Shown here: positions 4,473 to 4,543 of the stretch, piece by piece | How positions within the stretch are numbered: the stretch's first letter is position 1 | How the letters are laid out: each line of letters opens with the position of its first letter | NCBI GenBank assembly: GCA_963768425.1 | Contig: CAVYHV010000024.1 | Location: 1-59,952 of the forward strand | From: Candidatus Bathyarchaeota archaeon | GTDB taxonomy: Archaea > Thermoproteota > Bathyarchaeia > Bathyarchaeales > Bathycorpusculaceae | Direction of reading: 5' to 3' | Length of the DNA: 59,952 nt | The notes under the pieces: model-generated | Told to the model about the DNA's origin: nothing | What the model saw: the letters and a program-made list of their open reading frames with translations, nothing else | Database searches by the model: none | Program-made: the position numbers and the translations under genes

Positions 4473-4543
4473 TGGCGCCGGGGAAGGGATTCGAACCTGA
4501 GACCCCTTAGGGAAAGGATTTCCATCTGAGCATCGGGCAAACA
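4473..4543 (-). repeat. Chimeric tRNA 3'-half fragment (Leu-CAA intron end and variable arm joined to a Ser-like acceptor end with CCA)
   Basis: 4487-4543 aligns to the tRNA-Leu gene at 6401-6463; 4472-4497 matches 3459-3484. Confidence 0.85.

Follow-up and report, generated by a model that had tools for sequence, protein, structure and literature searches.

A chimeric tRNA-Leu(CAA)/tRNA-Ser(CGA) fragment between two toxin-antitoxin cassettes of a Bathyarchaeota genome, a one-off recombination scar

The window analysed here, a stretch of 59,952 nucleotides from a Candidatus Bathyarchaeota archaeon, is contig C24 (CAVYHV010000024.1) of a 2.96-Mb assembly that is 91% complete. It carries an intact, intron-containing tRNA-Leu(CAA) gene, which anchors an array of small cassettes (Table 1) and was the only tRNA match of an Rfam search over positions 1-10500. 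ARAGORN, which found no tRNA gene in the window when run without intron search, names this gene Ser(cga). This is an anticodon miscall: the stems read CAA, and the CAA loop can be seen directly in the intron-less homologue of genome G249.

Four toxin-antitoxin pairs, one of RelE/ParE type and three with PIN toxins, are located 3' of the gene. The tRNA-like sites between them lie at 6055 (inverted), 5965, 5268, 4473 and 3460, the last four being co-oriented with the tRNA gene, all on the minus strand. The array units measure 0.7-1 kb and contain no integrase. A search of C24 for tyrosine integrases (PF00589) gave no match; elsewhere in the host genome there were five matches above the cut-off.

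Table 1. Features of the tRNA-Leu(CAA)-anchored array in window coordinates; classes 1-4 are site labels coined in this analysis
Feature	Position	Strand	Basis or remark
Intact tRNA-Leu(CAA) gene, array anchor	6390..6509	-	Rfam tRNA, 44 bits
tRNA-Leu(CAA) intron, 35 nt, at 37/38	6469-6435	-	found by ARAGORN
Degenerate Ser-type site with palindromic arm (class 1), inverted relative to the tRNA	6055..6093	+	same class as 18 genus matches
Class 3 site, conserved arm and Leu(CAA)-like 3' end from about position 64	5965..6001	-	
DUF2683 putative antitoxin	5604..5834	-	Pfam PF10884, E 6e-8
RelE/ParE-family toxin	5339..5626	-	Pfam PF05016; TIGR02385 above cut-off
Leu(CAA) 3'-end remnant with degenerate T loop, left border of vapBC1	5268..5288	-	12/13 match plus CCA
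PIN-domain VapC-like toxin of vapBC1	4854..5264	+	Pfam PF01850, E 4e-15
Putative vapBC1 antitoxin	4664..4864	+	size and overlap with PIN gene; no family match
Chimera, 5' part, Leu(CAA)-derived; right end of vapBC1	4498..4543	-	alignment to local gene
Chimera, shared 11-nt core (crossover interval), tRNA positions 52-62	4487..4497	-	site-by-site table
Chimera, 3' part including CCA, Ser(CGA)-derived; left end of vapBC2	4473..4486	-	identity to genus Ser(CGA) genes
Putative vapBC2 antitoxin	4131..4400	-	position; no family match; 89% identical protein in G016
PIN-domain VapC-like toxin of vapBC2	3688..4134	-	Pfam PF01850, E 4e-7
Class 2 site, conserved arm and Ser(CGA) T loop/3' end; right end of vapBC2	3460..3527	-	
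AbrB/MazE-type antitoxin	3100..3363	-	PF04014; TIGR01439
PIN-domain VapC-like toxin, third PIN module	2703..3113	-	Pfam PF01850, E 3e-19

Homologues of the RelE/ParE module (29 non-self matches in total) were followed at 15 loci, where six lie at tRNA-Tyr, five at other tRNA types occurring once each, and four have no tRNA detected. At the Tyr loci L183, L187 and L189, where the tRNA-Tyr is intron-rich, the fragments that close the module extend nearly as far back as its D arm, with the 5' side decayed and the 3' side intact. Further repeats were noted in the window: an approximately 98-nt repeat at 1949-2046, of which seven other contigs together hold at least a dozen copies (82-94% identity) and which also directly follows Ser-type sites in two relatives; two tracts of 10-bp tandem repeats (31414-31513 and 31657-31745) beside a pair of 30-nt repeats; and a perfect 42-nt tandem duplication at 50016-50099. 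The host genome also contains two quite different tRNA-Cys(GCA) genes (C6:27623-27696 and C6:41293-41368).

The initial annotation had described the fragment at 4473-4543 as a Leu/Ser chimera with a disrupted T stem, and every element of that description was recovered. An alignment of the 5' 46 nt (4543-4498) with the local tRNA-Leu(CAA), interrupted by several short gaps, has 39 identities in 44 columns and runs from the distal intron through the 3' anticodon stem and variable arm into the 5' T stem; for this part, BLASTN against the whole genome gave 92% over 38 nt (E 9e-6). The last 25 nt are identical to the 3' end of genus tRNA-Ser(CGA), and 24 of 25 nt are shared with the 3460 fragment. 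At tRNA positions 63-73 the fragment agrees with Ser(CGA) in 11/11 positions and with Leu(CAA) in 5/11. All six informative sites in this segment are Ser-type, and the two just 5' of the core (50 and 51) are Leu-type. None of 1000 shuffles reached the score of the 16-nt tail.

The T stem TCAGG/CCCTT retains two of its five pairs, and the combination of paired T and acceptor stems with a 5' half, expected of a functional or split tRNA gene, is not found. Among 47 tRNA genes Leu(CAA) reaches the best local score, 37, against 25 for Ser(CGA), and no single gene spans the whole fragment. This set comprises 38 genes of the host and nine, Ser(CGA) among them, borrowed from the relative G081 because they are missing from the host assembly; no tRNA-Ser(CGA) gene was found in the 91% that is represented. 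A scan for strong sites detected 56 in the genome (genes included) and none in the reversed genome. The Ser-type end is present in 33 of 61 genomes searched and, as 27 of the 29 non-self loci listed are by eye Ser(CGA) genes, the tRNA-Ser donor proposed earlier for the 3' half can be named as Ser(CGA). In the listed Ser(CGA) genes the 5' T stem reads AGGGG or AAGGG, not GAAGG.

Between the two parts lie 11 nt common to both donors, GGTTCGAATCC, and the sequence alone bounds the switch to these positions, which agrees with the suggestion that the crossover occurred within shared sequence. The core is less widespread than had been supposed: the exact 11-mer occurs in 3/47 tRNA genes, two of them Leu(CAA) and Ser(CGA), and only if A or G is allowed at position 57 does it occur in 24/47. 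Both partners have an identical 7-nt loop, TTCGAAT, flanked by GG/CC, while their outer three stem pairs differ. An identical loop with inverted flanking stems in both partners is the layout of the T-loop class with its 7-bp overlap. As in a hybrid attachment site, the halves come from different parental sites and switch inside shared sequence, downstream of a tRNA gene followed by co-oriented 3' fragments; an integrase gene inside the unit is lacking on contig C24.

It is very improbable that the junction is an assembly chimera or that a Leu fragment drifted to its present form by chance. De Bruijn assemblers are able to cross short repeats, and the X1 contig, which spans 4419-4569 with no differences, may come from the source sample itself. 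However, the repeat is merely 11 nt long, and the junction is bridged by contigs from two studies: the X2 contig, from the other study, spans 4402-4692 with two differences, one of which restores the base of the Leu gene, and extends 85 nt past the junction on its shorter side. These bridging contigs are shallow (depth 3-4; contigs from 4 of 14 listed runs were compared), and the X2 contig in particular largely refutes misassembly. Drift would require six out of six changes towards Ser(CGA), against the shuffling result given above. A 204-nt contig of a further run, X3, has the same vapBC1 end (4545-4680, six differences) followed by a Leu(CAA) 3' end and is the unrecombined Leu/Leu allele of a close relative.

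The cassettes on the two sides of the junction have different home loci. The vapBC2 cassette is 86% identical over 951 nt to the DNA directly behind the intact tRNA-Ser(CGA) of G016, where the homologue is closed by a degenerate Ser site. An unbiased search of the genus found vapBC2 in 2 of 119 other genomes, G016 and G106, and no tRNA site was detected near the second homologue. The nearest vapBC1 end (83%) lies inside a Leu(CAA) array of G130, and by eye the homologous cassette ends in degenerate Leu-like sites in G100, G139, G031, G120 and G014. Six remoter vapBC1 copies are placed between Leu(TAA) fragments (one), between Leu(TAG)-type sites (one), near an inverted Ser site (one) or where no site was found (three). 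Among the Leu(CAA) and Ser(CGA) loci examined, a sample selected by tRNA, vapBC1 occurs only in Leu loci and vapBC2 only in the Ser locus. Since the flanking cassettes match Leu(CAA) and Ser(CGA) loci in relatives, the fragment is a junction in an integrase-less, tRNA-anchored array, and with moderate confidence we regard it as a hybrid attachment site joining two toxin-antitoxin cassettes rather than a gene.

The missing host tRNA-Ser(CGA) gene would also fit an origin of the 3' half as a remnant of that gene, the Leu array and the Ser(CGA) locus having been brought together by a rearrangement through the T loop, with the gene's 5' part removed or relocated. vapBC2 stands behind the Ser end just as its homologue stands behind the gene in G016, and a Ser(CGA) site is found mid-contig at C13:24942, beside genes that flank Ser(CGA) in several relatives. 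We consider this origin improbable nevertheless: G016 has a spacer about 95 nt longer between the Ser end and vapB, and Leu-type sites and Leu-flanking genes resume at C13:102127-96000, which is probably the same array past an assembly gap. The absence of Ser(CGA) itself says little, because nine tRNA types are missing from the incomplete assembly.

An overlap test of contig ends did not join C24 and C13. The probable far end of the Leu(CAA) array past the gap, C13:100753-103554, contains an IS-like transposase gene, which we take to be of the IS110 type, a class 3 Leu site, a RelE-type pair, a Leu fragment and a further gene that is presumably flavin-reductase-like; the genes flanking this region follow Leu(CAA) in G128 and G085.

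Among the assembled Leu(CAA) 3' ends there is no reciprocal Ser-arm/Leu-3' junction, and an assembly gap lies beyond window position 1. The remnant at 5268-5288 was rejected both as a candidate for the reciprocal junction and as a possible Tyr/Leu hybrid, since its 5' side fits no tRNA beyond shuffles (12/300 were as good as the best of 47 tRNA tests). Inversion with the site at 6055-6093 is ruled out as well: the 3' end of that site is Ser-like, not Leu-like, and the orientation of vapBC1 to the Leu site is constant in relatives.

The chimera is the one discordant site among the 56 strong sites of the host genome. When the genome and the examined loci are taken together, two of 23 sites with tRNA-like arms (30 found minus seven genes) are discordant, the second being C10:83744, Gly(CCC)-like on the 5' side and Arg(GCG)-like on the 3' side and too degenerate for a breakpoint to be placed. 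It belongs to a decayed, near-full tRNA-Gly(CCC)-like copy (C10:83677-83760), whose Arg(GCG)-like acceptor end makes it a possible second hybrid. The 21 Leu(CAA)-arm fragments collected (24 before exclusion of two Leu(GAG) genes and of a gene truncated at a contig end) are the chimera, 19 fragments with Leu ends and an ambiguous one in G130. In the latter, Leu(CAA) identity ends right after position 60 and the tail is best matched by Leu(TAG), with 3/1000 shuffles as good; we did not count it, given that some 21 fragments had been compared and that the gene next to it is the usual neighbour of Leu(CAA).

The chimera pattern was absent from 200 other genomes of the family (10 belong to the genus). 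When all of GTDB was scanned for Ser(CGA) ends combined with a disrupted T stem, three loci came up, none with a Leu arm, and scans of metagenome contigs gave no matches to the chimera pattern and none to the vapBC1 arm pattern. Two pattern matches proved to be an intact Leu(CAA) gene variant (G249) and a native gene (L108). The similar chimeras with the same breakpoint that had been anticipated are thus essentially absent: the Leu/Ser chimera is real, but it is a one-off recombination scar.

The initial annotation had further expected the scar to locate the recombination core. This part of its interpretation is not supported, and neither are recurrence and the common core. The Ser donor, the interval and the traffic of cassettes stand: members of the genus have cassettes and attachment-site arms at various tRNA loci. 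Homologous fragments show several classes of junction, which range from the intron to the acceptor stem. The arms of genus attachment sites do switch tRNA partners, at points that are class-specific (positions 49-53, about 59 and about 64), and the scar therefore represents one crossover class, not a universal core.

The arm of class 1 is a 12-bp palindrome 13 nt before tRNA position 61, and the T loop is often foreign. Such sites were noted at 6055-6093 (+) in the window, at C10:3738-3777, C6:979 and C13:24942, and at loci L215-L244. The pattern has 43 matches in 30 of 120 genomes, against none for the reversed pattern, and none in viral contigs. The arm is joined to Ser(CGA), Ser(GGA) and Ser(TGA) ends; in G085 one arm occurs on two different serine ends. 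In the 15 Ser(GGA) sites the loop is foreign (agreement 0/15 at position 54, 0/15 at 56 and 1/15 at 57), and positions 61-73 match in 11-15 of 15, an agreement that is partly circular because the pattern fixed 59-60 and the assignment used 61-73. In class 1, strands are possibly exchanged without homology in the loop, or cut at its 3' edge.

The class 2 arm closes integrase-bearing elements at Leu(TAA) in the host genome and at Ser(CGA) in G011, and in G114 it is joined to a Leu(TAG/CAG) end. Identity to the host tRNA begins at 49-53 in five of seven sites; the other two are degenerate within the loop. In the host genome a full-length PF00589 integrase lies behind tRNA-Leu(TAA), in an element that ends in a class 2 site, and is 51% identical to one behind Ser(CGA) in G013. 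The class 3 site of the window matches a genus Leu(CAA) variant by eye at 10/13 positions of its 3' end, and the same arm is also joined to Phe(GAA) ends on host contig C15. In class 4 the ends from position 49 are Leu(CAA) in G030 and Ala(CGC) in G081, and the two integrases are 54% identical.

Integrase frames that run through the tRNA 3' end were observed at Leu(CAA), Ala(CGC) and Leu(GAG), and we take them to resemble SSV-type split integrases. With their distal sites they lie at L074:448-1486/7371-7392 (G030), L249:125-1141/5922 (G081) and L136/L248, and only short frames were seen at the distal sites. The host has other tRNA-anchored arrays with repeated sites (C17:10089-36857, C10:27914-34445, C15:41339-56900 and C6:945-11330). 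Several of these contain non-cognate ends: Ser-like in an Ala-type array, and Arg-like behind Ala(CGC) and Ser(GGA).

Based on these observations, we suggest, as the somewhat favoured course of events, that an exchange inside the shared 11 bases joined the Leu(CAA)-type right end of vapBC1 to the Ser(CGA)-type left end of vapBC2. The most likely agent would be a T-loop-class tyrosine integrase acting in trans from another place in the genome, as positions 52-62 hold the T loop, the neighbouring 3460 site is of the T-loop class and a related integrase is present in the genome. Such an enzyme would take the identical 7-nt loop as its overlap and tolerate differing outer stems. In the simplest route the array would already have been mixed, and the DNA between a Leu site and a Ser site downstream of it would have been excised; no reciprocal junction is then to be expected, because it would be lost on the excised circle. 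Alternatively, Ser-type circles may have inserted into the Leu fragment in two steps, with the same product. A single insertion of a vapBC2 circle misfits, since the 3460 end is Ser instead of the predicted Leu and there is no reciprocal junction.

A layout of the kind required for excision occurs twice in G028, where a Leu(CAA) fragment and, 163-169 nt behind it, a Ser(CGA) site lie in the same orientation. At these loci (L287:10248-10411 and L288:7674-7843) a RelE-type cassette and the Leu(CAA) fragment stand away from the Leu(CAA) gene, with the Ser(CGA) site next. It is a precedent for the layout and not an ancestor, because a different gene follows its Ser site.

The main rival is a deletion by replication slippage or repair between co-oriented tRNA fragments through the 11-nt microhomology; a direct repeat of this length could be deleted without any integrase. 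We regard this as the less likely course, although it accounts for the rarity of the junction and for the missing reciprocal product, and close direct repeats are available in mixed Leu/Ser arrays, both in G028 and in the Leu(CAA) locus of G101, which has a Ser(GGA)-type site. Being unique among the 21 Leu(CAA)-arm fragments, the junction is tied to an enzyme by no recurrence. On the other hand, integrase-linked arm classes repeatedly switch partners at class-specific positions, which random deletions would not do, and the 3460 neighbour belongs to an integrase-linked, partner-switching class. An integrase of the T-loop class in trans is thus still the reading that we prefer.

With both parents, the crossover interval, an unrecombined allele and the home locus of each cassette identifiable, the fragment is an unusually clean natural record of cross-tRNA recombination. 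It shows that toxin-antitoxin cassettes sometimes cross between different tRNA landing sites, and it provides, in the Leu(CAA) and Ser(CGA) T arms, a concrete substrate pair with candidate enzymes for the spread of integrase-less cassettes among tRNA loci. Candidate integrases of the host genome are encoded at C14:260424-261734, C30:105941-106840 and C30:110299-111201. The host represents an uncultured archaeal group, and the wider cassette system is more interesting than the single scar. Although this is speculative and rather doubtful, the genus might run an integron-like exchange network on tRNA 3' ends, in which a few trans-acting tyrosine integrases move bare toxin-antitoxin cassettes from one to another of many tRNA loci. 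If so, class 1, with its foreign T loop on three serine tRNAs, would represent strand exchange without overlap homology, and the chimera a captured cross-locus hop. The array differs from an integron in the strict sense: there is no adjacent integrase comparable to IntI beside attI, and the sites are tRNA-derived, where an integron would have attC hairpins closing the cassettes.

A literature search, whose coverage left out most subscription papers, returned nothing on such hybrids or on toxin-antitoxin arrays at tRNAs in Bathyarchaeia. The closest parallels are tRNA-targeting islands. As described in the Islander study (PMC4383910), such islands leave displaced tRNA fragments, with crossovers at subsite A (anticodon), the T loop or subsite J (T/acceptor junction). 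Here, too, a gene and its co-oriented 3' fragments delimit tandem units, and classes 2 and 4 have their junctions at the T loop, class 3 close to the T/acceptor junction. The integrase and 2-kb filters of Islander would drop the array units, which are shorter and integrase-less, and, unlike Islander fragments, the chimera has halves from different tRNAs (PMC4383910).

A hybrid tRNA sequence arising from off-target archaeal integration with relaxed site use is described in a review (PMC8371274). The two cases are alike in that two tRNA sequences recombined at a non-cognate but similar site. Those hybrids, however, concern viruses and a full gene, whereas here a dead fragment switches in the T arm between integrase-less toxin-antitoxin cassettes (PMC8371274). 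The pT26-2-like suicidal integrases of Thermococcales use many tRNA 3' ends with relaxed sites and switch by successive integrations (PMC7253208). Related integrases on different tRNA ends are common to both systems; in contrast to the Thermococcales case, no integrase fragments flank the junction, and the integrases linked to class 2 converge with the tRNA, the site lying outside the gene (PMC7253208).

Tandem arrays at tRNA genes are known from integrated elements of Thaumarchaeota (PMC6563490) and from the tycheposon islands of Prochlorococcus (bioRxiv 10.1101/2020.12.28.424599), in which, as here, one tRNA is reused and older units with partial tRNAs are pushed outwards. Those arrays contain copies of their own tRNA, and the accessible text of the two reports mentions neither hybrid fragments nor bare toxin-antitoxin pairs (PMC6563490; 10.1101/2020.12.28.424599). 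Displaced fragments, tandem arrays and the three crossover subsites are thus already established, and the chimera is a single scar of a known process.
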